From contig JANXTZ010000041.1 of NCBI GenBank assembly GCA_025352125.1, positions 7,756 to 71,755 of the forward strand: a DNA stretch of 64,000 nucleotides. Direction: 5' to 3'. Position 1 is the first letter of the stretch, and every line of letters starts with the position of its first letter. Source of the DNA: Deinococcales bacterium (GTDB lineage: Bacteria; Deinococcota; Deinococci; Deinococcales; JAAFIG01). The position numbers and the translations under genes are program-made. The notes beneath the pieces were generated by a model. That model did no database searches, had not been told where the DNA came from, and saw only the letters and a program-made list of their open reading frames with translations. Below are positions 24,120-38,337 of this stretch, in pieces.

Positions 24120-24689
24120 TTAAGTATGAAATTCATTCACAGGGATAAACTGACACCCAGTTATTCCAGAAGTCTCGAGGCTAGATTTCAGAGATTGATG
24201 GATTAACACAAAGCAATAAAATTCTGCTATTCGCAGCAAGGGTCGTTGCATATCCAGAATCTCTTGTTTTAGTTCTAATTTTTTAATTTCTATAATGAAT
24301 TCAGCATCTTCTGTATCAAAAACAAGCTCTGAATTTTTAAGGTCAATCGATTCATGTTTTTCGAGCAGATGAAATGCCGAGTAATTTAAATCCAGTTGAA
24401 CTCTGGACTTGAGATCAAACACGTCTGAGGGAATGCTCTCAGAATTAACTCCGTGCTGCTCGAGAATATCAAGCATTCGTTGCGAATACATATCAATACC
24501 ACTTCCGCAATTGTAATTGTCAAATTTTGGTCCAGAACCATCGATCAAAAATTTGAATCGTTGTGGTTTTTTGGTTAAAGGCTCTGCCAACCACCAATGA
24601 GGCTCACAGTCTCGTAATAATGGTTCTGATCTTGCGAGAAGAGTCTTGTTGTGCCAGCTTTTTAATTCTGCTCGAAATACAAAGTACAT
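24120..24689 (-). CDS. Hypothetical protein resembling DUF1629/Imm11-type polymorphic-toxin immunity proteins
   Basis: 189 aa in markedly AT-rich DNA (about 38% GC in a 120-nt hand count). ...GSGIDMYSQRMLDILEQHGV... and C-terminal FVLIHQSLKSSLETSGITGCQFIPV resemble that family from memory only. Confidence 0.45.
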   Translation of the reverse strand: MYFVFRAELKSWHNKTLLARSEPLLRDCEPHWWLAEPLTKKPQRFKFLIDGSGPKFDNYNCGSGIDMYSQRMLDILEQHGVNSESIPSDVFDLKSRVQLDLNYSAFHLLEKHESIDLKNSELVFDTEDAEFIIEIKKLELKQEILDMQRPLLRIAEFYCFVLIHQSLKSSLETSGITGCQFIPVNEFHT

Positions 24690-27738: not shown

Positions 27739-30129
27739 TTATTCCCAAGCGGGGTTCAGTCTCCCCTTTTCGTCCCTCGAGTACGGCGTCCAAGCCAGCG
27801 CAAAGAGTTGCAAGCTGATATCGGTGGCTTTTGGTTTGACAGAGATTTGCTCGAGTTGTTCGTTTACGTCCACGCCATTCACCGCATCCAGTTCGGCTTG
27901 CAGTTGCGCTTGAAGCTCATTCAACTGCGCTTGCACGGCTTCAACCGTATCGGCTGCTCGAGACACGTCCTGACCCTCGCGGTAGGCTTTACCCGCCGTT
28001 TTCATGGCACTGGCGGCTTTGGAAACCACGTTGGTTTTTCGACCACCGCCAAACAACGCGCCCAGAATGCCCATGCCAACGTTCACCACCGTCTCGAGTT
28101 GGGCTTGCTTGGCTTGCGCAGCCTGGGTGTCCTGCGCGGCTTGGGCTTTACGAACGCGTTCCTCGAGCGTGTTGAATTTATTCTGGTAACTGGCTTTGAT
28201 CTGTTCGGCTTGAGCGTCACGCAATTCTCGAGCGGTGGTTTGAAGCCGAATCCGAAAATCTTGCTCGGTTTCGTCTGGGTTTGAAAACACCTCGAGTTTG
28301 CTCGAGTAGAGCAGTGTCAAGGCTTGATTGCCTTGCAACCATTTGTTGAAGTCTTTGCTCCATTTGTCGAAGTTTTTCGCATTTCCCGCCGAAGTTGGCG
28401 CGTCCGCAAAATCTGCGCCGTCCATTGGATCATTCAGCAAAGAATTCACATCAATCTCGAGTTTGGTGGCTTCATCCCAGGTGACTGGCACGGGATTGTC
28501 CGTGATTTCTGCCAGAAGTTGCACGGTTTTGCTCGAGTCAATCTTGTACTTGGTGCTGGCGTACCGCACATCTGCCGCACCGAGCGCCATTGGGTAGTAA
28601 ATCACGCCTGCTTCGGCACTGGCAGGAATGAAAAATTGTTTAACCTGCGGGGGTAAAACGGGACGACTCGAGGTGGCGGGTTTGGCGACTGGTGATGTTG
28701 AAACCGTAGCTGCATCTGCCCCTACAATTGCGCCTGCCTTTTTCGCTGACATCAGCACTTTGATCTGATCGTTGGTCATCGGACCCGCCAAGTAACTCAT
28801 TGTCCAACGGGTTTGAAAGGTGATCGGACCCGATTCGTGAACGTTGTGCATCAAAAACACGCGCTTCCCGAGGCTCGAGAGGGTGCGGTTGAGGTCGCCA
28901 CTCGCGCCAGTGCCTTGTAATGCCTCGAGCACGCGGGCTTTGTCGTTGTCGGTTTGTAAACGTCCGACAAACCACGTGCCAGCGTTCGAGAGTCCTTTGT
29001 AATCCAGATCGACTGGGTTTTGGGTGCTCAAGACCAGTCCCAGCCCGAAGGCTCGAGCCTGCTTTAAAAGCGTCAGCATCGGGGTTTTGCTGGGCGGGTT
29101 GCCATTTGGCGGGAAGAAACCGAAGATTTCATCCATGTAGAGCACGGCGCGGAGGCTCGAAGTTCCTGGTTGTGAGCGCATCCAGCCGAGCATCTGGTTT
29201 AAAAGTTGGGTGACAAAAAACATCCGTTCGGCGTCGCCAAGATGCGCGATGCTGAAGACGGTGCAACGCGGTTTGCCTGTGGCGGTGAAAAGCATGTTCT
29301 TGATCTCGAACGGTTCGCCCTCCATCCAACTCGAGAATCCTGGGCTGGCGAGCAAATTATTCAGGTTCATGGCGAGTTCAAAGCGGTCTTTGCTGGGGTA
29401 AAAACTTTCGATATCCATGACGCCAATTTTTTGAAATGGCGGTTGTTGAATCGAGGCGATCATGCCGCCCAAATCCAGGTTCTTGCCGGCATTCCAGGAA
29501 CTCGAGATGATGTTCGAGACCAGAATGTGCTCTCTGGAGCGGATTGGGTCCGCGTCAATGCCGAGCAGCCCGAGCAAGCCCGTGACGGTGGTTTGAATTC
29601 GTTCTCGGAGCGCGTCAGAGTCAGACATGACGGCTGGTTCTGGCACGTCGAACGAACGCAGGACCGAAACTTGCAATCCGGCGCTCGAGCCTGGGGTGTA
29701 AATCGAGAAATCAATGCTGTCACGCATTTTCTTGATGCGGCTGGCATCCTGACCCCAATCGGCTAAACCTTTTTTCCAGAATTCGGCTTGTTGTGCCGCG
29801 AATGCGTCAGGGTCAAGGTTTTGACGGTTTGCTTCCTCGAGGTTGACCCAAGGACGAAATTCTTCTTTGGAAAGGTCTGGAAAACCTAAGAGCAAATTAC
29901 TCAGGTCGCCTTTTGGATCAATGGCGATCACAGGAATGTTATCGACCAGCGCTTCCTCAAGAAGCCCAATGCCCAAACCTGTCTTGCCCGAACCGGTCAT
30001 GCCGATAATCACGGCGTGGGTGGTCAAATCTTTGGAGTCGTACAAAATCAGGTCGTCGGTTAATTTCCCGCCAACGGTGTCAAATTTTTTGCCCAAGTAA
30101 AACGCGCCCAGTTTCTCAAAATCCTGCAT
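27739..30129 (-). CDS. HerA/FtsK-superfamily P-loop ATPase (DUF87/DUF853-like) with a long coiled-coil C-terminal extension
   Basis: 796 aa with Walker A HAVIIGMTGSGKTGLG, IAIDPKGDLSNL, Walker B-like LRAVLYMDEIFGFFPP and LVLSTQNPVDLDYK. The C-terminal Q/A-rich coiled coil has a Gly-rich hydrophobic patch (VVNVGMGILGALFGGG). GGAGG lies before the ATG. Confidence 0.75.
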   Translation of the reverse strand: MQDFEKLGAFYLGKKFDTVGGKLTDDLILYDSKDLTTHAVIIGMTGSGKTGLGIGLLEEALVDNIPVIAIDPKGDLSNLLLGFPDLSKEEFRPWVNLEEANRQNLDPDAFAAQQAEFWKKGLADWGQDASRIKKMRDSIDFSIYTPGSSAGLQVSVLRSFDVPEPAVMSDSDALRERIQTTVTGLLGLLGIDADPIRSREHILVSNIISSSWNAGKNLDLGGMIASIQQPPFQKIGVMDIESFYPSKDRFELAMNLNNLLASPGFSSWMEGEPFEIKNMLFTATGKPRCTVFSIAHLGDAERMFFVTQLLNQMLGWMRSQPGTSSLRAVLYMDEIFGFFPPNGNPPSKTPMLTLLKQARAFGLGLVLSTQNPVDLDYKGLSNAGTWFVGRLQTDNDKARVLEALQGTGASGDLNRTLSSLGKRVFLMHNVHESGPITFQTRWTMSYLAGPMTNDQIKVLMSAKKAGAIVGADAATVSTSPVAKPATSSRPVLPPQVKQFFIPASAEAGVIYYPMALGAADVRYASTKYKIDSSKTVQLLAEITDNPVPVTWDEATKLEIDVNSLLNDPMDGADFADAPTSAGNAKNFDKWSKDFNKWLQGNQALTLLYSSKLEVFSNPDETEQDFRIRLQTTARELRDAQAEQIKASYQNKFNTLEERVRKAQAAQDTQAAQAKQAQLETVVNVGMGILGALFGGGRKTNVVSKAASAMKTAGKAYREGQDVSRAADTVEAVQAQLNELQAQLQAELDAVNGVDVNEQLEQISVKPKATDISLQLFALAWTPYSRDEKGRLNPAWE

Positions 30130-30192: not shown

Positions 30193-30221
30193 AAAAAGCT
30201 CGAGCCTTCAAACTCGAGCTT
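30193..30221 (-). terminator. Rho-independent terminator ending the vWA-FHA-PP2C-STK-PPK2 operon
   Basis: On the minus strand: AAGCTCGAG-tttgaagg-CTCGAGCTT followed by TTTTG. Both stem arms contain CTCGAG. Confidence 0.7.
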
Positions 30222-30238
30222 CAATGCGAGCACAGAGG

Positions 30239-31051
30239 TTACACCACTTTCAAATTTGCAAAGTCCACGGTTTTATCGCCTGCCGGATACTCGAGTTTCA
30301 TGGCTTCGAGCGCGTCCACGATAATGCTGGCGATCACGTAATTGCGGTACCAGCGTTTGTCACCTGGAATCACATGCCAGGGCGCTTCGTCGATGCTGGT
30401 GGCGGCAATCGCTTCCTGGTACACGCGCATGTAATCGTCCCAAGATTTGCGTTCAACAAGGTCGCCTGGATTGAACTTCCAGCGTTTTGTCGGGTCGTCG
30501 ATGCGTTCTTGCAGTTGAATCGCTTGCTCCTCTAAGCTGATGCGCAGGTGCAATTTAACAATGGTCGTGCCGTTCTCAACCAGCATTTGCTCGAAGTTGC
30601 GAATCTGAGCGAAGCGTTTTTCGGCGGTTTTGTCATCCACCCAACCATGAACCCGAGTGATGAGCACGTCTTCGTAATGCGAGCGGTTGAAGATGCCAAC
30701 AATCCCTTTTGGCGGGCAGGCGTTGTGAATGCGCCACAGGTAATCGTGGCTCAGCTCGAGCGAGTTGGGGGCTTTGTAATAGGTGACTTGCACACCGTTT
30801 GGGTTGAGGCTGTCAAAAACATTGCCAACCAGGCTGTCTTTGCCAGAACCATCCATCGCCTGAATGACCACCAGCAGGGCATGGTTGCGCGAGGCAAACA
30901 ACAAATTTTGCAGCTTTGCCATTTTTTCTTTGAGGTCAGCGGTTTTGGCTTCGCATTCAGCTCGAGTCTCAGCGCTAAACTTTCCAGTGTCGTCTGGTTT
31001 GATGCTCGAGATTTTGAATTTCTGACCAGGTTTGACCACGTACTTGTCCAT
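30239..31051 (-). CDS. ppk2: Polyphosphate kinase 2 family (polyphosphate:nucleotide phosphotransferase)
   Basis: MDKYVVKPGQKFKIS...VVIQAMDGSGKDSLV (Walker A)...FNRSHYEDVLITRVHG. I place the start at ATG 31051, which has an AGGAG. Confidence 0.88.
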   Translation of the reverse strand: MDKYVVKPGQKFKISSIKPDDTGKFSAETRAECEAKTADLKEKMAKLQNLLFASRNHALLVVIQAMDGSGKDSLVGNVFDSLNPNGVQVTYYKAPNSLELSHDYLWRIHNACPPKGIVGIFNRSHYEDVLITRVHGWVDDKTAEKRFAQIRNFEQMLVENGTTIVKLHLRISLEEQAIQLQERIDDPTKRWKFNPGDLVERKSWDDYMRVYQEAIAATSIDEAPWHVIPGDKRWYRNYVIASIIVDALEAMKLEYPAGDKTVDFANLKVV

Positions 31052-31076
31052 GAAATGCTCCTGTGAGACTCGAGAT

Positions 31077-32471
31077 TTACTTGAAATAACCGTTGAAGTA
31101 GGCAAAAGCAGCACCAGCGGCGATCAACAACACGATGCGTCCAATCCAAGTGCCGATCAGCCACTGCAAGAAAATATAGGCGGTCAGCAATACAGTGCCG
31201 TACAGTCCACCCAGAATTGCGTACTGCGAAAAAGCACCCAGCACCCTGAAATAGCCCGCAATAAACAACGCGCCCAAAATCGCGTATGGAATCCAAGCCC
31301 AATCCCAGACGCTCGAGGTGCTGGTGGCGGCTTGGACGGGTGTGTTTGGGTTGTAATTGGCGGGTGGGTTGCCTTGAAAGACTGGGGTGTTTGGATTGTT
31401 GACGGGCGGCGCAGCATTGCCCGGCAACCAAGTGTTTGGTGGGGTTTGAGGCATGGTTTGGGTGCGGTTGTTCGAGACTTGCTGGGTTTTTTGATAACTT
31501 GGCGCATTGCCAGCTTTTCCGCCCACCGCCTTCTCGAGTTCGGACAAAAATTGATCGGCGCTTTGTGGACGCTCGTCAATTTTCATCGCCATCGCTCGGG
31601 TCAAAACATCCGACATGCCTTTGGAGACTTTGGGATTGACCTCTCGAGCGGAGGGTTGCTTGGTTCCTGCCGCACGGTCTGTTGCCGCCACCGGAACGTT
31701 TCCGGTCAGGGCGTTGTACAGTGTGCCAGCCAAGGCGTAAATGTCGGTGTACGGTCCGCGTTTGGCTTCACTGGCGTACTGCTCGAGCGGGGCATAGCCT
31801 GGGGTCACCAGCACATCTTGTTTGCCCGGGGTTTTCATGGATCGCGCCGAACCGAAATCAATCAAGACTGCGCCCCTGGCAACCATCATGATGTTGTCGG
31901 GCTTGATGTCGCGGTGCAACAAACCGGCTTTGTGAACGTCATCCAGGGCGGTGATGACCTGGCGGGCAATCTCGATGACCTCGGATTCCGGCAGCGTGCC
32001 ACGGTCTTCGACGACTTTGGAGAGCACTTTGCCCTCGAGAAATTCCATCGCGTAATATGAGGTTTCATTCTCGGCGAAGACATCGTAAACCCGCACAATG
32101 TTGGGGTTCGGGTTCGTGACCGTCAGTTGCGCCACAAGGCGTGCCTCATCGGCAAAACTGGCTCGGGTGTCGGAAAATTCTTGAGGCTGCATTGTGACCG
32201 GCGATTTGAGGCTCGTGCCAGACCGTGATGCCCCCTGCGGGAAATATTCTTTGACCACCAGCGGAATTCCGAGCGCGACGCTGAACGCCTTGTAGGTGAT
32301 GCCAAAACCGCCCTGACCCAGGGCTTTCTCGAGTTTGTATTTGCCATTTTGCAGCATGGTTCCGGCTGGAAGTGCCGATGGAAATTTTGCACCGCTCAAA
32401 TTCGCACCGCAAGTTTTGCAGGTTGTTGCGTTGTCGTCGTTTTCGGTGGCGCAGTACGGACAAACAATCAT
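31077..32471 (-). CDS. Ser/Thr protein kinase with an N-terminal zinc ribbon and C-terminal TM helices
   Basis: MIVCPYCATENDDNATTCKTCG (CxxC..CxxC). Kinase motifs LGQGGFGITY, VVKEY, HRDIKPDNIMM, DFGSAR and GYAPLEQ. A Pro/Asn-rich linker precedes about 3 TM helices. Confidence 0.9.
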   Translation of the reverse strand: MIVCPYCATENDDNATTCKTCGANLSGAKFPSALPAGTMLQNGKYKLEKALGQGGFGITYKAFSVALGIPLVVKEYFPQGASRSGTSLKSPVTMQPQEFSDTRASFADEARLVAQLTVTNPNPNIVRVYDVFAENETSYYAMEFLEGKVLSKVVEDRGTLPESEVIEIARQVITALDDVHKAGLLHRDIKPDNIMMVARGAVLIDFGSARSMKTPGKQDVLVTPGYAPLEQYASEAKRGPYTDIYALAGTLYNALTGNVPVAATDRAAGTKQPSAREVNPKVSKGMSDVLTRAMAMKIDERPQSADQFLSELEKAVGGKAGNAPSYQKTQQVSNNRTQTMPQTPPNTWLPGNAAPPVNNPNTPVFQGNPPANYNPNTPVQAATSTSSVWDWAWIPYAILGALFIAGYFRVLGAFSQYAILGGLYGTVLLTAYIFLQWLIGTWIGRIVLLIAAGAAFAYFNGYFK

Positions 32472-32513
32472 TCACTCACTCCTGGCTTTGGGACGCTGGG
32501 GTCATTATGACAT

Positions 32514-34562
32514 TTACAGGGGCTGGCGTTCCTGATACTCGAGCACCATTGCCGTGGCATTGTCGCTCGAGCCGTTCTCCAGGGCTTGACGCACCAGATG
32601 GTCGGCGAGGTCTTGGGTGCTCTGGTCGGCTTGAATGGCTTGCTCAAATTCGGCGGGCAGGTACGCGCCCCAAACGCCGTCGGTCACCAGAATCAAACGG
32701 TCGTTTGGTTGCATGTTGACCTCGTGAGCGTCAACGTATTCTGCGCCCATGTCTCGAGACGAACCGAGCGCCCGCATGACTTTGTTGGAATCGGGATGGT
32801 TGTGCGCGGCTTCGGGCGTGATGACCCCCATTTTGACCAGCATGGCAACCATCGAATGGTCGTCCGAAATTTGTTGCACGGGTTCGGCGCGACTGGCGCG
32901 AACCAAATAGGCTCGAGTGTCGCCGACGTGTGAGAGCACCACCCTGTTGCCATCGGCGATCACGCCCGTGAATGTGCAACCGCCAGACTTGCCCTCGAGC
33001 GCCTCGAGCACCTTACGGTTGGCTTCGATGGTGGCATTTTTGGCTATCGATATACTTGCTTCGAGCATGTCAAACTCGAGAAAGGCGTGAACGGCGGCTT
33101 GCGACGCCGCCTCACCCTTTGCCATGCCGCCCATGCCGTCCGAAACGCAGGCGAGCAGCAAGCCACCGCGTCCGGCATCGCCGAGTTGCAAGACGTTTCG
33201 GTAACCGGCGGCGTCTTCGTTGACGCTGCGGTCGGGGTTCAAACCGACGCTCGAGGCGAGTCCGACTTGCCAGGAGGCTCGGGCTTCAAAGTTCTGATTT
33301 AAGCGCGTGACCAAGTCGAGCGCTTCCCCTGCCGAGGCTCGGGTGTCTGGGGCTGCCAGCATGTTGGTGAAGACTTGCGGCGCACCTGGGGTGGTTGGGA
33401 AGTCTTGCACCAGTTCGCCCTCGGTCAGGGCGCGACCCATCAGGGTGTGATAGAGCAACGCACCGAGGCTGTAAACGCCCTCTGTGCCGTTGACACTCAA
33501 GCCTGCGGCACGTTCGGGCGCACCGTAGCGCGGGGCTTCGGCGGGAGGCGTGTCGCCGATGCGCTGGACTCTAGGAAGGCGCAGCAAGCGCGTCGGAGAC
33601 AGCAAAATGTCTCTGGGGTCAAGTCCGGTAAGACTAAAACCCCTGGCAAAAACGTAACGGTTAAAGCGTGCCAGATCGACAATCGCACTGACCGCCGCTC
33701 GTTTGTCAGCCTCGAGAATCGCACTTTCCAGCGTTCGACCCTCGGGTTTTGGGTGCGCGATCAGGGTCGTGCCGTCTCGTTGCACAGTGTCGATCAAGCC
33801 TGGCAACATCGGGTGCGGATAGAGGGTACGGGTCAATTCCGCGCCGCTCTTGTACGAGACAATCATGACCTCAGTGCCGTCGGGCGCGGTGGCAAACGTG
33901 CGTCCAAAAGCGTCGTGATCCAAAATTTTGTACTCGCCGCGCTCGAGGTGAATGGTTGACGCGTCGCTCAGGGTTTGGGTGTTTAAGCTGGTTGGCGCGG
34001 CATCTTCGGACAGCAGCACCTCATCCTCTAGATAACCCGCGTCGGAACTGGTGTCTTTTTCGGTCAGTCTTGCAGGTGGGGAAGCGTCATCATCGGGGAT
34101 GAAAACCCCATCTTCGGTTTCCAGGTTGTGGGGCGTGTCACGAACTTCGAGTTCGGTTTTCTCGAGCGGGTCTGGAATGTCTTCAAAGTGTGGTTCGATA
34201 GAGTGTGGTTCGATAGAGTGTGGTTCGATCAAAGCGCCCGTCATGACCTCGGAGTTTGAGGAGTCTGCCGTCACCTTGTTCGAGTTTGTCTCAGGATTTG
34301 GGTTCTCGCCGCTTGAATCGGTAAACGGTTTTTCTTGAGCAGGTTCGGCTTGAGGCTCTGGTTTCACAACAACCTCCGCCGAAGTCGGGTCTTCGACGGG
34401 TGTCGGTTCTGTTTTTGCTTCACCGTTGTCCACGGCTGTTCCTTCTGGCGCAAGGCTCGGGTTTATCGACTCGAGGTCGTCTGCGGGTATCGTTTGACCA
34501 GGGTCTTTTGGCGGTTGCGGCTCGAGTTGTGCATCGTGTTGCTTCTTATTTCGGTCGTTCAC
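32514..34562 (-). CDS. PP2C-family Ser/Thr phosphatase fused to a degenerate kinase-like domain and an acidic disordered N-terminus
   Basis: 682 aa. The C-terminus carries PP2C motifs (LLLACVSDGMGGMAKGEAAS, VLSHVGDTRAYL, LILVTDGVWG, GSSDNATAMVL). The middle ~230 aa are kinase-fold-like but lack GxGxxG, the VAIK Lys and HRD (LTGLDPRDILLSP). A GTGA overlap joins it to the FHA gene. Confidence 0.85.
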   Translation of the reverse strand: MNDRNKKQHDAQLEPQPPKDPGQTIPADDLESINPSLAPEGTAVDNGEAKTEPTPVEDPTSAEVVVKPEPQAEPAQEKPFTDSSGENPNPETNSNKVTADSSNSEVMTGALIEPHSIEPHSIEPHFEDIPDPLEKTELEVRDTPHNLETEDGVFIPDDDASPPARLTEKDTSSDAGYLEDEVLLSEDAAPTSLNTQTLSDASTIHLERGEYKILDHDAFGRTFATAPDGTEVMIVSYKSGAELTRTLYPHPMLPGLIDTVQRDGTTLIAHPKPEGRTLESAILEADKRAAVSAIVDLARFNRYVFARGFSLTGLDPRDILLSPTRLLRLPRVQRIGDTPPAEAPRYGAPERAAGLSVNGTEGVYSLGALLYHTLMGRALTEGELVQDFPTTPGAPQVFTNMLAAPDTRASAGEALDLVTRLNQNFEARASWQVGLASSVGLNPDRSVNEDAAGYRNVLQLGDAGRGGLLLACVSDGMGGMAKGEAASQAAVHAFLEFDMLEASISIAKNATIEANRKVLEALEGKSGGCTFTGVIADGNRVVLSHVGDTRAYLVRASRAEPVQQISDDHSMVAMLVKMGVITPEAAHNHPDSNKVMRALGSSRDMGAEYVDAHEVNMQPNDRLILVTDGVWGAYLPAEFEQAIQADQSTQDLADHLVRQALENGSSDNATAMVLEYQERQPL
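34188..34229. repeat. 15-bp in-frame tandem repeat (2.8 copies) inside the PP2C gene
   Basis: gtgtggttcgataga x2 plus gtgtggttcgat, encoding IEPHS-IEPHS-IEPH on the minus strand. Confidence 0.9.
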
Positions 34563-35317
34563 GCCTCGGCGGATTCGGTGTACAAGAATTTGGTGTTCCC
34601 AAACGCAACCTCGTCACCGTCGTTCAAGATCTCTGGTTGCGCAATTCTTGGACCGTAGGCGGTTTGACCCACGCGCTTGAGGTAGACGCCGTTGGTCGAT
34701 CCCAGATCGCGCACCACCCATTTGCCGTTCTCGAGCGCAAATTCGGCGTGGCGACGCGAAATGTGCGCCTCGCCTTTCATGCCTGAAAGGTCAATGTCAA
34801 CGGGTCCGGTCGAGCTGTCAAACCGTCCGACGCTGACCCGTTCACCGACCAGTGGGAAGGTTTCGGTGGTGCTTGCGCCGTAATCGCGTGGCACAAGGCG
34901 AGCGCTTTTGATTCCGCCACCAACCACGGTTGGCGCACTGACGACAGATGTACTGACCACAGGCGCTGGCGCGAGCGGTTCTTCGATCAACGTGTTGTGT
35001 GGGTTGACCGCCTCGGCAGAAATATTTGGCATCGCTTCGGCAAGCACTGGCGCAACGACTTCAGGGATGGGTACAGCCGCCTCAATGACTGGTGTAACCG
35101 TTTGGGCAACAACTGGCGCGACCAATGCCTCTTCGACCACCATTTGGGCGAGATCGACGGGCGCAGTTCCAATCGGTGCTGCAACAACTGGCGCTGCACC
35201 AACTGGTACAGCAGCAACGGCGGCACTCGAGGCTGGCGCACTGAGTTCAACGCCGCAGCCTTCACAAAATTTCGTACCTTCAGGATTTTCGGTTCCGCAA
35301 ACGTGGCAGACAGTCAT
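34559..35317 (-). CDS. Zinc-ribbon plus FHA domain protein
   Basis: MTVCHVCGTENPEGTKFCEGCG, an Ala/Pro/Val-rich linker, then FHA: VSVGRFDSSTGPVDIDL...HISRRHAEFALENGKWVVRDLGSTNGVYL. AAGGAG lies before the ATG. Confidence 0.88.
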   Translation of the reverse strand: MTVCHVCGTENPEGTKFCEGCGVELSAPASSAAVAAVPVGAAPVVAAPIGTAPVDLAQMVVEEALVAPVVAQTVTPVIEAAVPIPEVVAPVLAEAMPNISAEAVNPHNTLIEEPLAPAPVVSTSVVSAPTVVGGGIKSARLVPRDYGASTTETFPLVGERVSVGRFDSSTGPVDIDLSGMKGEAHISRRHAEFALENGKWVVRDLGSTNGVYLKRVGQTAYGPRIAQPEILNDGDEVAFGNTKFLYTESAEA

Positions 35318-35395
35318 TTTTACTCCTTGATTGGTCTCTCTCGAGACGGGGAATTTTACGCATTGTACGGGTTTATGTCATTTTTTTCAGGAATG

Positions 35396-36745
35396 TTACG
35401 CGCCTGTCAATTTGCGAATCTCTTCATCCGATGGCAAGCCACCGCTCGGTGCGCCACCATCGTTTGGACCGCCAACCTTGATGGTCTGGGTTTTCGCACC
35501 CATCTTGATGGTTTTCGCCGTGCCACTCGAGATGCCCTTGGTTTGCTCGAGTTCGGCTTTGGCTTGATCGAGGGCTACCGTCATGGCGGAGTTGCCCAAG
35601 CGCACCGTCATTTGACGGGCAATCTCGATGGTTTTGGCAGCCTGTCCAGGGTTGGACTGTGCCTCTTGCGCCGCCTGCTTGACCAGACCCTCGAGGTTAC
35701 GTTGCTGGACGTAACCCATGACTTCTGGGTTGACGGCAGCCGTTTGGTTTTCGTCGAAGGTAAACTCGACGACCACATCGGTTGGTGGGATTTCACCGCG
35801 AACACCCTCGCCCGGCACGTCAAAGGTCAAACCAATTTGGGCAATGCGCACCTTGGCTGGCGGGCGCGGCGGCAGGGTCAACTCGAGCAGGAACGCGGTT
35901 TGGGTGCTGGCTTCCAGGTTGCCCGCTTTGGCTTTCGCACCGCCCTCGAAGCGTGCCAGGTCAATTTCGGCAAGAAACGGGTAGACCCGCGTCACACGGT
36001 CCAAAGTCACGCCCTTCACACCGCGAAGCGTGAACTCGAGGTTGGTGATGACCTCGGAGGCGGCACGGCGAAATTCGTCGCCCAACACCGTGGGCAAATC
36101 GGACGCCAGAACGCTGGCTGGTGGGCTGGCGTTTTTTGCCACCACGTGAATCACGCGACCGCCCGTGCGATCCGAGATTTCGCCCATCAGGTCCTCGTTG
36201 AATTCGTCGCCCACGCCCAGAGACGTGATCGTGATGCCCTGCGCGACATAGGTTCCGGTCACGGCGCGGCAGGCGTCCTCGTCAAAGGTTGCGCCGTCGG
36301 TCAGGAGCATCATGCGTTTGTTCTTCGAGCCGCTGGCGACATTGGTCAGCGCCTCGAGCATCCCAAGACCCATCATCGTGCCGCCCGAGTGCTTGCGCAG
36401 CGCGTCAACCGCCTGCGCCAGACGACCACGGTCCGAGGTCAGGTTGGTCAGGGTGCTGGCGTCATCGTCAAATTGCACGATTGCGATTTGATCGCTCGAG
36501 GTCAGGTCAGAGCTTTGCACCAAACTGGTCAGCGCCTGCGTCACAAGCTCGAGTTTGTTTTTTCCACCCTCCACTTTTTCACGCATCGACCCAGAAGTGT
36601 CCACCACGAAGGTTAACGCCAGTGGCGCTCGGGTGGTGATTTGCGGCGTGAGTTGCGCCAACAAAAAGAGTTTTTGCGTTTCCGTGCTGCCCTCGGGCGA
36701 GGCACGCAAAAACCCGCGATGCGGGGTGAGATTGACTTGAATCAT
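35396..36745 (-). CDS. von Willebrand factor type A (vWA) domain protein
   Basis: 449 aa with MIDAS motif LTFVVDTSGSM, then ...MMLLTDGATFD. The C-terminal half is beta-rich with a Gly/Pro tail. Confidence 0.85.
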   Translation of the reverse strand: MIQVNLTPHRGFLRASPEGSTETQKLFLLAQLTPQITTRAPLALTFVVDTSGSMREKVEGGKNKLELVTQALTSLVQSSDLTSSDQIAIVQFDDDASTLTNLTSDRGRLAQAVDALRKHSGGTMMGLGMLEALTNVASGSKNKRMMLLTDGATFDEDACRAVTGTYVAQGITITSLGVGDEFNEDLMGEISDRTGGRVIHVVAKNASPPASVLASDLPTVLGDEFRRAASEVITNLEFTLRGVKGVTLDRVTRVYPFLAEIDLARFEGGAKAKAGNLEASTQTAFLLELTLPPRPPAKVRIAQIGLTFDVPGEGVRGEIPPTDVVVEFTFDENQTAAVNPEVMGYVQQRNLEGLVKQAAQEAQSNPGQAAKTIEIARQMTVRLGNSAMTVALDQAKAELEQTKGISSGTAKTIKMGAKTQTIKVGGPNDGGAPSGGLPSDEEIRKLTGA

Positions 36746-37008
36746 GAAGCCTCCTTGAATCTAGGAACAGTCTACCAATCTTGGCACTGGAATGCTCGAG
36801 AATGCCTGCTCGAGACCTCCTGGTGATACGACTTCAACAGTCTACAAGTTCCCAAGGAATTTGTAAGATTCTGCGAACGTCTCGGGTATTTCTCGAGAAG
36901 CTGCAATCACAGCCCGAACTTGCCAAGACCAAAGATTTTGACTGGTATCAGGCATACATTGGCGGCTGGTGAATTCATATTTTGACGGCTTAAACGTTTT
37001 CAGGAGTC

Positions 37009-38337
37009 TCAATTTCCAGTGACTTCAAACCCAGCAGATGCCCGAGGCAAGCGAACGATCACGCACGAACCCTTGCCAATTTCGCTCTCGATCCAGATGC
37101 GTCCACCGTGCGCCGTGGCGATGGCGCGGGCAATCGGCAGACCGAGTCCTGTACCGTTCGTGTCGTTGCCCCTCGCCGATTTGGCACGGTAGAAACGCTC
37201 GAACACCCGCTCGAGTTCTGAATCCGCAATACCAACCCCAGAATCCCGAACCCGCAACTCGAGTTGATCGCCAACGTTGCTGGCGCTGACCTCGACACGA
37301 CCTGGCGCGGGTGTGTACTTGCAGGCGTTGTCAATCAAAAGCACCACCAGTTGCTTGAGCCGGTCCGCATGTCCCAAAACCCGACCTGAGGCTGTGATGT
37401 TCAAGGTCAGGCTGTGATCGTGTGCCAGTGAACGCGATTCTTCAATGCTCGAGCGGACCACCTGCGCGAAATCGAGAGAGGTGTAGGTATCGATTTGAAA
37501 TGAACCGTTGCGGGCAAGGTGCAACAGGTCAGACACCAATCTGGACAGGCGTTCGGTTTCCGCTTTGGCTTCGACCAACGCGGTTTCGCGTTCAGGCAAA
37601 TCCAGGTCAGGATATTTCAGGATCAGGTCAATGTTGCCTTGAATCAACATCAGTGGTGTTCGCAATTCGTGCGAGGCATCTGCCACAAAACGTTTTTGCG
37701 CGTCGTTCAAGGTACGCAGTTCCTCGAGACGCGCCGCAAGCTCGAGATTGACCTCAGCCAGTGACCGCTCGGCTTGAATGGCACGTGCAGCCGTAAGACG
37801 TGCCTCGAGATCATCCATCACCATAGCGGCAAGATCATTGATGGTTTCACGCTGTGATTTGGTCAAATCTGGACGGGGCTTAAAGTCGTACATGCACAAG
37901 GTTCCAATGTTGTGACCCTCGGAGGTTCGCAAAGAAGCGCCCGCATAGAAACGCACGCCAAGTTGGAGCACCACAGGGTTGTCTTTAAAACGTTGATCTT
38001 TGAGCGCGTCTGGCACAACCATGACGTCATTGGTCAGAATCGTGTGACCACAAAAAGACAGGGCACGGGTGTTTTCGCGCAAGTCTATTCCAATGCAGGC
38101 TTTGAACCATTGGCGGTCACGGTCAACAAAGCTCACCATGGCAATCGGGACTTCAAAAAGCCGCGCCACCAGATTGACCACACGTTCAAACGCCACCTCG
38201 CTTGGCGTGTCGAGGACGCTATAGCGCTCGAGATTCGCCAATCTTTGAACTTCAAACTCGGGGATGGAAGGTGCGATCATTTGAATTGAATAATACGCCC
38301 AGTTTTGGGATAGAGCAATCAATAGGGTCACTTTCAC
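37009..38337 (-). CDS. GAF-domain sensor histidine kinase
   Basis: GAF (LERYSVLDTPSEVAFERVVNLVARLFEVPIAMVSFVDRDRQWFK), HisKA H-box FVADASHELRTPL and HATPase_c (DSGVGI, GTGLGLPIA). Start is uncertain (GTG 38337 or ATG 38280). Confidence 0.85.
   Translation of the reverse strand: MKVTLLIALSQNWAYYSIQMIAPSIPEFEVQRLANLERYSVLDTPSEVAFERVVNLVARLFEVPIAMVSFVDRDRQWFKACIGIDLRENTRALSFCGHTILTNDVMVVPDALKDQRFKDNPVVLQLGVRFYAGASLRTSEGHNIGTLCMYDFKPRPDLTKSQRETINDLAAMVMDDLEARLTAARAIQAERSLAEVNLELAARLEELRTLNDAQKRFVADASHELRTPLMLIQGNIDLILKYPDLDLPERETALVEAKAETERLSRLVSDLLHLARNGSFQIDTYTSLDFAQVVRSSIEESRSLAHDHSLTLNITASGRVLGHADRLKQLVVLLIDNACKYTPAPGRVEVSASNVGDQLELRVRDSGVGIADSELERVFERFYRAKSARGNDTNGTGLGLPIARAIATAHGGRIWIESEIGKGSCVIVRLPRASAGFEVTGN

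Follow-up and report, generated by a model that had tools for sequence, protein, structure and literature searches.

A predicted ArnAB-like Ser/Thr phosphorylation cassette followed by a lineage-specific polyphosphate kinase 2 gene in an uncultured Deinococcales bacterium

Organization of the locus

This report concerns a cluster of five genes at positions 30239-36745 of a 64,000-nucleotide stretch of contig JANXTZ010000041.1 from an uncultured Deinococcales bacterium, referred to as a whole as the window. Open reading frame (ORF) calls on the window place all five genes co-directionally on the minus strand. They encode a vWA protein, a zinc-ribbon-FHA protein (FHA protein), a pseudokinase-PP2C protein (PP2C protein), a zinc-ribbon Ser/Thr kinase (STK) and a class III polyphosphate kinase 2 (PPK2), in this order (Table 1). 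By sequence comparison, the first four genes are orthologs of DRA0331-DRA0334 of Deinococcus radiodurans and one copy of a widespread Ser/Thr phospho-switch cassette, to which PPK2 has been joined in one narrow Deinococcales lineage. A preliminary description, made from the sequence alone, had reported the five co-directional genes, their spacings and motifs and a terminator, all of which were reproduced by ORF, Pfam, motif and hairpin checks.

Table 1. Genes and putative regulatory features at the locus
Feature	Position in window	Strand	Remarks
vWA gene	35396-36745	minus	449 aa
Zn-ribbon-FHA gene	34559-35317	minus	252 aa
Pseudokinase-PP2C gene	32514-34562	minus	682 aa, start GTG
Zn-ribbon-STK gene	31077-32471	minus	464 aa
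Class III PPK2 gene	30239-31051	minus	270 aa; closes the unit in this lineage only
STK-PPK2 junction	31052-31076	minus	25 nt, CAGGAG ribosome-binding site, too short for a terminator
Intrinsic-terminator-like hairpin 3' of PPK2	30195-30222	minus	12-bp stem, then U-run
Conserved region 5' of vWA gene	36746-36900	minus	candidate promoter/operator; 2x TTG(G)TAGACTG
CCCGTACAAT in vWA-FHA spacer	35362-35371	minus	possible internal -10 element
DUF87/HerA-like P-loop ATPase	27739-30129	minus	796 aa; C-terminal half long, coiled-coil-like, Gln/Ala-rich
GAF-HisKA-HATPase histidine kinase	37009-38337	minus	between QueA and vWA gene, window only

The vWA and FHA genes are separated by a 78-nt spacer, the FHA and PP2C genes share a 4-nt GTGA overlap that was also called in the relatives L084 and L085, and a gap of 42 nt precedes the STK gene. 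We place the start of PPK2 at the ATG at 31051, which has the CAGGAG ribosome-binding site ahead of it; the start of a longer ORF at a GTG (to 31114) was considered and is unlikely. The hairpin behind PPK2 has a free energy of -17.1 kcal/mol (z = -2.3 vs shuffles), and the same hairpin with its T-run is conserved at this place in L084 and L085.

Distribution of the cassette and its orthologs in Deinococcus radiodurans

One genome per species was scanned with an alignment of the PP2C protein, and the loci were then searched by tblastn with all window proteins at a threshold of E 1e-5. The loci taken were the 80 best of at least 559 PP2C matches, with flanks of 8-10 kb per side and with some contigs ending inside the flank. 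Within this sample, genes for the vWA protein, the FHA protein with its zinc ribbon, the pseudokinase-PP2C protein and the zinc-ribbon STK were found together in about 25 species-level loci from at least six phyla, which include Deinococcota, cyanobacteria (many), Abditibacteriota, Chloroflexota and Planctomycetota. The carriers comprise Deinococcus species, Meiothermus, uncultured Deinococcales, Abditibacterium, a metagenome-assembled genome (MAG) of Chloroflexota, another of Isosphaeraceae and others, and among cyanobacteria Anabaenopsis, Microcystis, Desmonostoc, Sphaerospermopsis, Dolichospermum and Xenococcaceae. Cyanobacteria and the nearest Deinococcales MAGs (L004 and L005) have the gene order of the window, vWA-FHA-PP2C-STK; in L004 and L005 a convergent gene bounds the end of the cassette. 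Deinococcus cassettes differ from the window in having the order vWA-STK-FHA-PP2C, with or without a second STK, the second kinase being inserted between the vWA and FHA genes, and in having no PPK2.

In D. radiodurans the cassette corresponds to DRA0331-DRA0335 on chromosome II (L002). All four window proteins have orthologs among DRA0331-DRA0334, over their full length or all conserved domains. In tblastn comparisons with this locus the vWA protein is 45% identical over residues 1-449, the FHA protein 37% over 3-248 and the PP2C protein 38% over 209-675, and the STK matches both kinases at 46-49% over 2-317. As in the window's proteins, the FHA protein and the kinases of D. radiodurans have zinc ribbons, the kinase ends in C-terminal transmembrane helices, and the PP2C protein carries the same non-catalytic domain in its N-terminal part. 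A preprint describes the DRA0331-DRA0334(-DRA0335) cluster as unique to D. radiodurans (bioRxiv 10.64898/2026.01.23.701218). Judging from the loci surveyed here it is not unique to this species, since the cassette is widespread and common to cyanobacteria and other phyla.

In vitro work on the D. radiodurans orthologs has overtaken the statement of the preliminary description that such neighborhoods are functionally uncharacterised. DRA0334 is a Mn-dependent phosphatase that dephosphorylates DRA0332, RqkA and DR1243 in vitro; the FHA protein is phosphorylated by DRA0332, and FHA protein and phosphatase compete (bioRxiv 10.64898/2026.01.23.701218).

Domain architecture of the cassette proteins

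The vWA protein (Pfam VWA, E 3e-21) has a tripartite, ArnB-like organization, in which a beta-sandwich (residues 1-34 and 231-329) is interrupted by the vWA domain (42-202, with the MIDAS motif DTSGS at residue 49) and is followed by a C-terminal helical bundle (340-419) and a tail with conserved threonines. The AlphaFold2 (AF2) model of this protein has a pLDDT of 88.3, and its order of secondary-structure elements fits the ArnB fold. Foldseek matched the model to 4fx5 (TM 0.79/0.83), to ArnB in 8s05 (TM 0.67/0.77, E 6e-24) and to 5a8j, the ArnB paralog ArnE (E 5e-21), with the trunk-sandwich-helical core of Sec23/24 ranking next. A profile of the vWA family (A3) searched against PDB sequences gave ArnB as the third-best match, at E 6e-14.

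Between seven and eight conserved threonines lie within residues 372-447 of the vWA protein. T380, T409 and T412 are invariant in all 33 homologs, T372, T389, T421 and T447 are kept in 25-29 of the 33, and T419 in 22. The vWA gene is the slowest-evolving of the cluster, and its product is by far the most conserved component. It is 97-98% identical to its counterparts in the window's own clade (72-84% for the other cassette proteins), 80-81% identical to those of L004 and L005 (46-60% for the others) and 40-45% identical to those of cyanobacteria, where the PP2C protein reaches 27-31%.

The FHA protein consists of an N-terminal zinc ribbon (residues 4-22, 35252-35308; Pfam Zn_Ribbon_1, E 6e-6), an Ala/Val/Pro-rich linker and an FHA domain (residues 162-240, 34598-34834; Pfam FHA, E 1e-12) with the motifs GR, SRRH and NG. 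Its best match among PDB sequences is ArnA (5a8i, E 2.8e-7), and 8s05_C was matched as well. The STK likewise begins with a zinc ribbon (residues 4-25, 32397-32462; Zn_Ribbon_1, E 5e-5), which is followed by a Hanks kinase domain (residues 45-306, 31554-32339; Pfam Pkinase, E 4.8e-35) with the Lys of VVKE, HRDIKPDN at 186 and DFG at 205. Its C-terminal part is a Pro/Asn-rich linker and then about three hydrophobic helices (396-459, 31095-31286), and it has no extracytoplasmic domain. Three C-terminal transmembrane helices have been described for the D. radiodurans kinase ortholog DRA0332 (bioRxiv 10.64898/2026.01.23.701218). The two zinc ribbons of the window are 46% identical over 26 residues. 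In the surveyed loci, with the window included, an N-terminal CxxC-x(8-16)-CxxC pattern was found in 22 of 22 FHA proteins and 39 of 42 kinases, and by this pattern the N-terminal zinc ribbon on both proteins is a hallmark of the whole cassette family.

The PP2C protein can be divided into a disordered acidic N-terminus (about residues 1-200), a kinase-fold domain (about 205-440, 33243-33950) and the PP2C domain (445-676, 32535-33230). The last was matched by Pfam PP2C (E 9e-10) and PP2C_2 and by NCBIfam Stp1_PP2C (E 8.5e-45), and it has the motifs NEDA, DGMGG at 475, GDTR, DGVWG at 628 and SDN, so that its metal-binding motifs are intact. Pfam gave no match in residues 1-440. However, a profile of 42 homologs (A1), over its positions 141-322 ahead of PP2C, matches the bacterial Hanks kinases StkP, PknB and PknA (E 1e-13 to 1e-10), and hhalign against the window's own STK gave a probability of 84% from the alpha-C to the alpha-F helix. 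The AF2 model of residues 195-445 (pLDDT 86.5) returned protein kinases for all of the top 50 PDB matches in Foldseek, with E down to 4.5e-11 and TM of about 0.6. The domain has Gly in place of the HRD Asp, Asp in place of the catalytic-loop Lys and Asn, no DFG and no conserved beta-3 Lys; it retains APE and the catalytic-loop proline. At the position of the catalytic Asp the window's clade has Gly, Thr, Ala or Ser, and Asp is still present in Deinococcus and Meiothermus. These models and alignments identify the domain ahead of PP2C as a kinase fold without catalytic residues, that is, a predicted pseudokinase. Since profile, hhalign and fold-model evidence agree, we regard the pseudokinase call of the preliminary description as correct, and its other domain assignments were confirmed by Pfam.

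The N-terminal domain of DRA0334 has been labeled 'KI-FHA' (bioRxiv 10.64898/2026.01.23.701218), and the pseudokinase assignment contradicts this label for the same domain. A pseudokinase rather than an FHA-like domain on the phosphatase alters the reading of the published domain-swap experiments. In the same study, a catalytically dead phosphatase still boosted autophosphorylation of the kinase via its N-terminal domain (bioRxiv 10.64898/2026.01.23.701218), which, we infer, is what pairing of a kinase with a pseudokinase predicts.

Relation to ArnA and ArnB and to other known systems

The ArnA/ArnB module of archaea represses motility (PMC6509490, PMC12852372). ArnA is composed of a zinc ribbon, a linker and an FHA domain, and ArnB is a vWA hub (PMC12852372). 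In their co-crystal (8s05) the zinc ribbon of ArnA docks on the beta-sandwich and helical domain of ArnB (PMC12852372). ArnC phosphorylates threonines of the ArnB helical domain sequentially, by which the FHA domain is recruited and the complex tightened, and a phosphatase reverses this (PMC12852372, PMC6509490). The ArnAB switch responds to nutrient starvation (PMC12852372).

Sequence and model comparisons point to the vWA and FHA proteins of the window as the closest bacterial counterparts of ArnB and ArnA, respectively. The vWA protein shares the tripartite fold and the threonine-rich C-terminal helices of ArnB, the gene of the zinc ribbon-flexible linker-FHA partner adjoins the vWA gene in both cases, and Hanks-type kinases and a phosphatase act in the archaeal module too (PMC6509490, PMC12852372; PDB 8s05, 5a8i, 5a8j). 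Identity in structural alignments is low, at 15-18%. The archaeal module uses PP2A and the kinases ArnC (OB/TPR) and ArnD, whereas the bacterial operon encodes its own kinase and PP2C, has the zinc ribbon also on the kinase and a pseudokinase on the phosphatase, and operates without an archaellum. Because a PP2C-pseudokinase and a kinase with zinc ribbon and transmembrane helices are encoded, we consider the cassette a homologous ArnAB-like core and not the same system. The archaeal pair supplies a tested structural model, in which zinc-ribbon tethering is followed by clamping of phosphothreonine by the FHA domain. The preliminary description had proposed the shared zinc ribbon as a common docking module, a proposal that fits, by analogy, both its near-universal occurrence on the FHA proteins and kinases of the family and the position of the ArnA ribbon on ArnB (PMC12852372). 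The same zinc ribbon on the kinase suggests that it may use the same docking site on the vWA hub as the FHA protein.

FraH of Anabaena, known for its role in heterocyst membrane remodelling (PMC11500504, PMC9035410), has a zinc ribbon, a Pro-rich linker and an FHA domain and thus the architecture of the window FHA protein. DRA0333 has been called a FraH ortholog (bioRxiv 10.64898/2026.01.23.701218), and cassettes with a FraH-like gene were found in the cyanobacterial loci L016-L025. Alr0547 and Alr0548, reported to bind FraH, were considered as cyanobacterial cassette genes and rejected; they belong to a different locus, because Alr0548 is an FHA-kinase fusion and alr0546 encodes a histidine kinase. 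The actinobacterial FhaA/FhaB-PstP-RodA-PbpA-PknA-PknB operon was not matched either, as no cell-wall genes lie between the genes of the cluster and the PknB_PASTA model scores far under its cutoff (172 against 450 bits). The actinobacterial loci of the survey (L030-L082) match the PP2C domain only.

Another possibility is a role in phage defence or other conflicts, with the cluster as a TerY-P-type system that perhaps acts together with the downstream HerA-like ATPase. As far as the source describes it, the TerY-P triad combines the vWA protein TerY, a PP2C and a Ser/Thr kinase with a C-terminal zinc ribbon or OB fold (PMC10542128, citing Anantharaman et al. 2012). Like the predicted switch described here, it combines these three domain types for phosphorylation signaling, centers on a vWA protein and includes a kinase that bears a zinc ribbon (PMC10542128). 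PADLOC reported a TerY match to the vWA protein (E 1e-5) and weak HerA and mad8 matches to the downstream ATPase, and otherwise generic kinase (PD-T4-6) matches. However, the TerY match is weak (23 bits) and covers 40 residues (34-74) only. TerY is, going by that source, a short vWA protein without the ArnB-like beta-sandwich and helical domains, and the triad as described there is tied to Ter/restriction systems, has neither an FHA protein nor a pseudokinase on the phosphatase, and carries the kinase zinc ribbon at the C-terminus and not, as in the window, at the N-terminus. In addition, the cassette lies among housekeeping genes (GroES/EL, QueA, GTP cyclohydrolase I) and is vertically conserved, with the 97-98% identical vWA proteins of the clade unlike the contents of fast-turnover defence islands, and the ATPase gene is set apart by the terminator, is preceded by a separate conserved region and gives way to an ABC-F gene in L087. 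With generic kinase and marginal TerY/HerA matches as its PADLOC evidence, a defence system was rejected as the main explanation, and we consider it very improbable.

The PPK2 enzyme and its linkage to the cassette

The last gene encodes what appears by sequence to be a normal single-domain class III PPK2, and polyphosphate-dependent phosphorylation of both AMP and ADP would be expected of this class. It was matched by Pfam PPK2 (E 2.8e-68) and by TIGR03709 (339 bits, cutoff 247) and contains the GSGKD Walker A motif, a Walker B motif, NRSHYED and the lid motif RWKFN. The best PDB matches were 6aqe, 5lc9, 5o6k and 3rhf (E 2e-82 to 1e-72), which we take to be class III PPK2s from D. radiodurans, M. 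ruber and Arthrobacter; among the PDB PPK2 matches, an explicit class III label is carried by 6au0 only. Matches to 5llb and 4yeg, presumably class I PPK2 chains, were much weaker (E about 1e-24), and the two-domain 3czp gave 6e-56. The window enzyme is similar in length (about 270 aa) to the class III PPK2s of Meiothermus ruber, D. radiodurans, Arthrobacter and Cytophaga, which it matches at E 1e-82 to 1e-64, and differs from them in the position of its gene behind a Ser/Thr kinase gene and in Gly76 and His226. No zinc ribbon, FHA domain, extension or other added domain was found in the PPK2s of the linked clade. A check of these proteins for added domains and phospho-motifs turned up three clade-specific changes only, namely a one-residue deletion, Gly76 at P-loop+5 and His226. 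All linked-clade PPK2s have the latter two residues, whereas of 85 other class III PPK2s examined 72 carry Arg or Lys at the first position and 72 carry Tyr at the second; the substitutions may affect the handling of substrate or polyphosphate.

The clade that carries the linkage was sampled entirely from metagenomic contigs. PPK2 directly follows the kinase gene in seven of seven contigs (L084, L085/L086, L087 and L174-L176, from different samples), whose PPK2s are 79-86% and PP2C proteins 72-83% identical to those of the window. The STK-PPK2 gap measures 17-25 nt in L084-L087, and for L174-L176 the gene coordinates give 48 nt. The ribosome-binding site in this junction is conserved, and the junction is retained while both flanks of the five-gene block vary. 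In the genome survey, no PPK2 was found in any of 83 species-representative loci (up to 10 kb on each side), about 25 of which bear the cassette. The next relatives of the window PPK2 that were examined, 68-70% identical, are free-standing genes in three different neighborhoods. In the sister lineage, the cassette (2.27-2.29 Mb) and the PPK2 ortholog (3.01-3.03 Mb) are about 740 kb apart on one 5.09-Mb contig. As a background set we used metagenomic contigs with distant class III PPK2s (45-54% identical, without the window's clade); of 80 such loci, one adjoins a Ser/Thr kinase gene, and this in divergent orientation.

As PPK2 is linked in the closest relatives only and is unlinked in the genome loci and in the next PPK2 relatives, the linkage is a single evolutionary event that was kept in a narrow clade. 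These comparisons do not uphold the preliminary claim that a PPK2 is integral to the phospho-Ser/Thr module. Synteny in relatives, which that description had put forward as a check on its claim, holds for the seven contigs of the closest clade and breaks down outside it. PPK2 is, on the evidence of gene neighborhoods, not part of the cassette, and polyphosphate (polyP)-driven signaling is not a general system, because PPK2 joined the cassette in one narrow Deinococcales lineage only. The comparative evidence lends no support to a dedicated biochemical coupling of polyP to the kinase. The proposed transcriptional fusion fared better: since throughout the window's clade a gap of 17-48 nt separates the kinase gene from PPK2 behind it, co-transcription of PPK2 with the cassette is plausible and, judging from this geometry, probable in this lineage.

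Proposed function and alternatives

The explanation that we favor, with moderate confidence, is an ArnAB-like Ser/Thr phospho-switch cassette with a lineage-specific PPK2 gene behind the kinase gene, probably on the same transcript and without dedicated biochemical coupling. By analogy with the archaeal pair, the ArnB-like vWA protein would be the hub, on which the zinc ribbons of the membrane-anchored kinase and of the FHA protein would each dock like the ArnA ribbon on ArnB. The kinase would autophosphorylate and would also phosphorylate the FHA protein and, probably, the threonines conserved in the vWA C-terminal helical domain; the FHA domain would then clamp a phosphothreonine, resulting in a tight complex, and PP2C would reset the switch. 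The pseudokinase domain may target the phosphatase to the kinases, or regulate them, via kinase-pseudokinase pairing. An ordinary class III PPK2 gene of the single-copy type would have moved behind the kinase gene in one uncultured Deinococcales lineage. There it is most likely transcribed at the end of the cassette mRNA and would thereby share the regulation of the switch, plausibly during starvation or stress.

Several points weigh against this explanation. We infer co-transcription from a short gap and the lack of a terminator in it, and selection for coupling could be the reason why the junction outlasted rearrangements on both sides. The docking of the bacterial zinc ribbons on the vWA protein and the phosphorylation of the latter are drawn by analogy from an archaeal module that uses PP2A and kinases of other architecture, and the ArnA match, at E 2.8e-7, is modest.

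Extra zinc-ribbon kinases are present in some cassettes (L001-L003, L006, L009, L016 and L028), an indication that one vWA hub can take input from more than one kinase. The second zinc-ribbon kinase of D. radiodurans is fused to SH3 and beta-helix repeats. The Abditibacterium locus contains four kinases in a row, and the Xenococcaceae locus a second FHA-kinase pair.

It is unlikely, in our judgment, that PPK2 is functional in the switch itself, either by regenerating ADP or ATP from polyP beside the membrane-anchored kinase, which would keep signaling going at low ATP, or as a phospho-regulated output that mobilises polyP on a starvation signal. Such a function would fit the tight, ribosome-binding-site-bearing junction in every clade member examined despite rearranged flanks, the placement of the terminator only after PPK2, and the response of ArnAB to nutrient starvation, where use of polyP makes sense (PMC12852372); Gly at P-loop+5, where most other class III enzymes have Arg or Lys, hints at altered properties. 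However, the linkage reflects one evolutionary event in one narrow clade and does not recur in the about 25 other cassette species or in the 80 unrelated PPK2 loci. The sister-lineage ortholog is free-standing, the enzyme has no docking module, and a non-basic residue 76 is also found in unlinked PPK2s. We hold it rather doubtful that PPK2 was recruited as the output or energy supply of an ArnAB-like starvation switch, such that the switch controls or depends on the conversion of polyP to ATP. If true, this would be a direct molecular link from Ser/Thr signaling to polyphosphate mobilisation. The evidence for polyP-driven Ser/Thr signaling consists of one lineage-specific gene juxtaposition, and its significance hinges on experimentally shown coupling.

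The adjacency may also have no effect on expression, if PPK2 has its own promoter within the end of the kinase gene and the arrangement persists only because the sampled relatives are close. In agreement with this, PPK2 is monocistronic in relatives and has often changed its neighborhood, conserved internal promoter-like elements occur elsewhere in the cluster, and the upstream NYN-QueA synteny is retained in the clade as well, so that there has been little time for rearrangement. Yet the gap is 17-48 nt without a terminator between the two genes, the consensus scan gave no promoter-like site in the 3' region of the STK gene, and the STK-PPK2 junction has stayed in place although the surroundings of the five-gene block changed on both sides. 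We regard this possibility as quite unlikely.

Regulatory elements and flanking genes

The region of about 155 nt upstream of the vWA gene (36746-36900) shows long near-invariant blocks in an alignment of the window with L084, L085 and L087, and its two TTG(G)TAGACTG copies are about 65 nt apart. A simple consensus scan for sigma-70 promoters gave no match in 36746-36900; judging from its conservation, a promoter or operator for the cassette probably lies here. In the vWA-FHA spacer the scan matched the promoter-like CTGAAA-17-TACAAT, and the CCCGTACAAT element is near-invariant across five aligned relatives, one of which has CCCGTAAAAT instead.

Upstream of the cluster are genes for NYN, QueA and the GAF histidine kinase, and downstream those for the DUF87/HerA-like ATPase, GroES/GroEL and others, with GTP cyclohydrolase I also nearby. 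A search of the surroundings for phosphate or polyP genes found none, and housekeeping genes only. Beyond the terminator, the ATPase gene is preceded by a separate conserved block that contains GGTATGATTGT. The ATPases of L084 and L085 are 91-92% identical to that of the window, and L087 has the ABC-F gene at this place; the ATPase gene is not part of the cassette. The position of the GAF histidine kinase gene is empty in relatives or occupied by a reversed hypothetical gene (L085/L086). In the sister genome (L091) a HAMP histidine kinase gene follows the cassette kinase. An ORF of 189 aa adjoining groEL (24120-24689, minus strand) was matched weakly, under the Pfam cutoff, by Immunity protein 43 (E 1.7e-4).

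An abundant palindrome

The palindrome CTCGAG occurs 428 times in the window, where 12.1 +/- 3.3 copies are expected from dinucleotide-preserving shuffles. This corresponds to one copy per 150 bp, in genes and spacers alike, and makes CTCGAG the commonest hexamer by far; the next palindromic hexamer has 41 copies. The bases flanking CTCGAG are weakly biased. A literature search on CTCGAG hyper-abundance found no specific description. Related Deinococcales and Meiothermus-type contigs (L004, L005, L011 and L084-L091) contain 3-7.5 copies per kb at GC contents from 46 to 64%, and loci of Deinococcus species, cyanobacteria and Abditibacterium contain 0-0.2 per kb. With this abundance and distribution, CTCGAG seems to be a highly iterated palindrome of the HIP1 kind in a Deinococcales clade.

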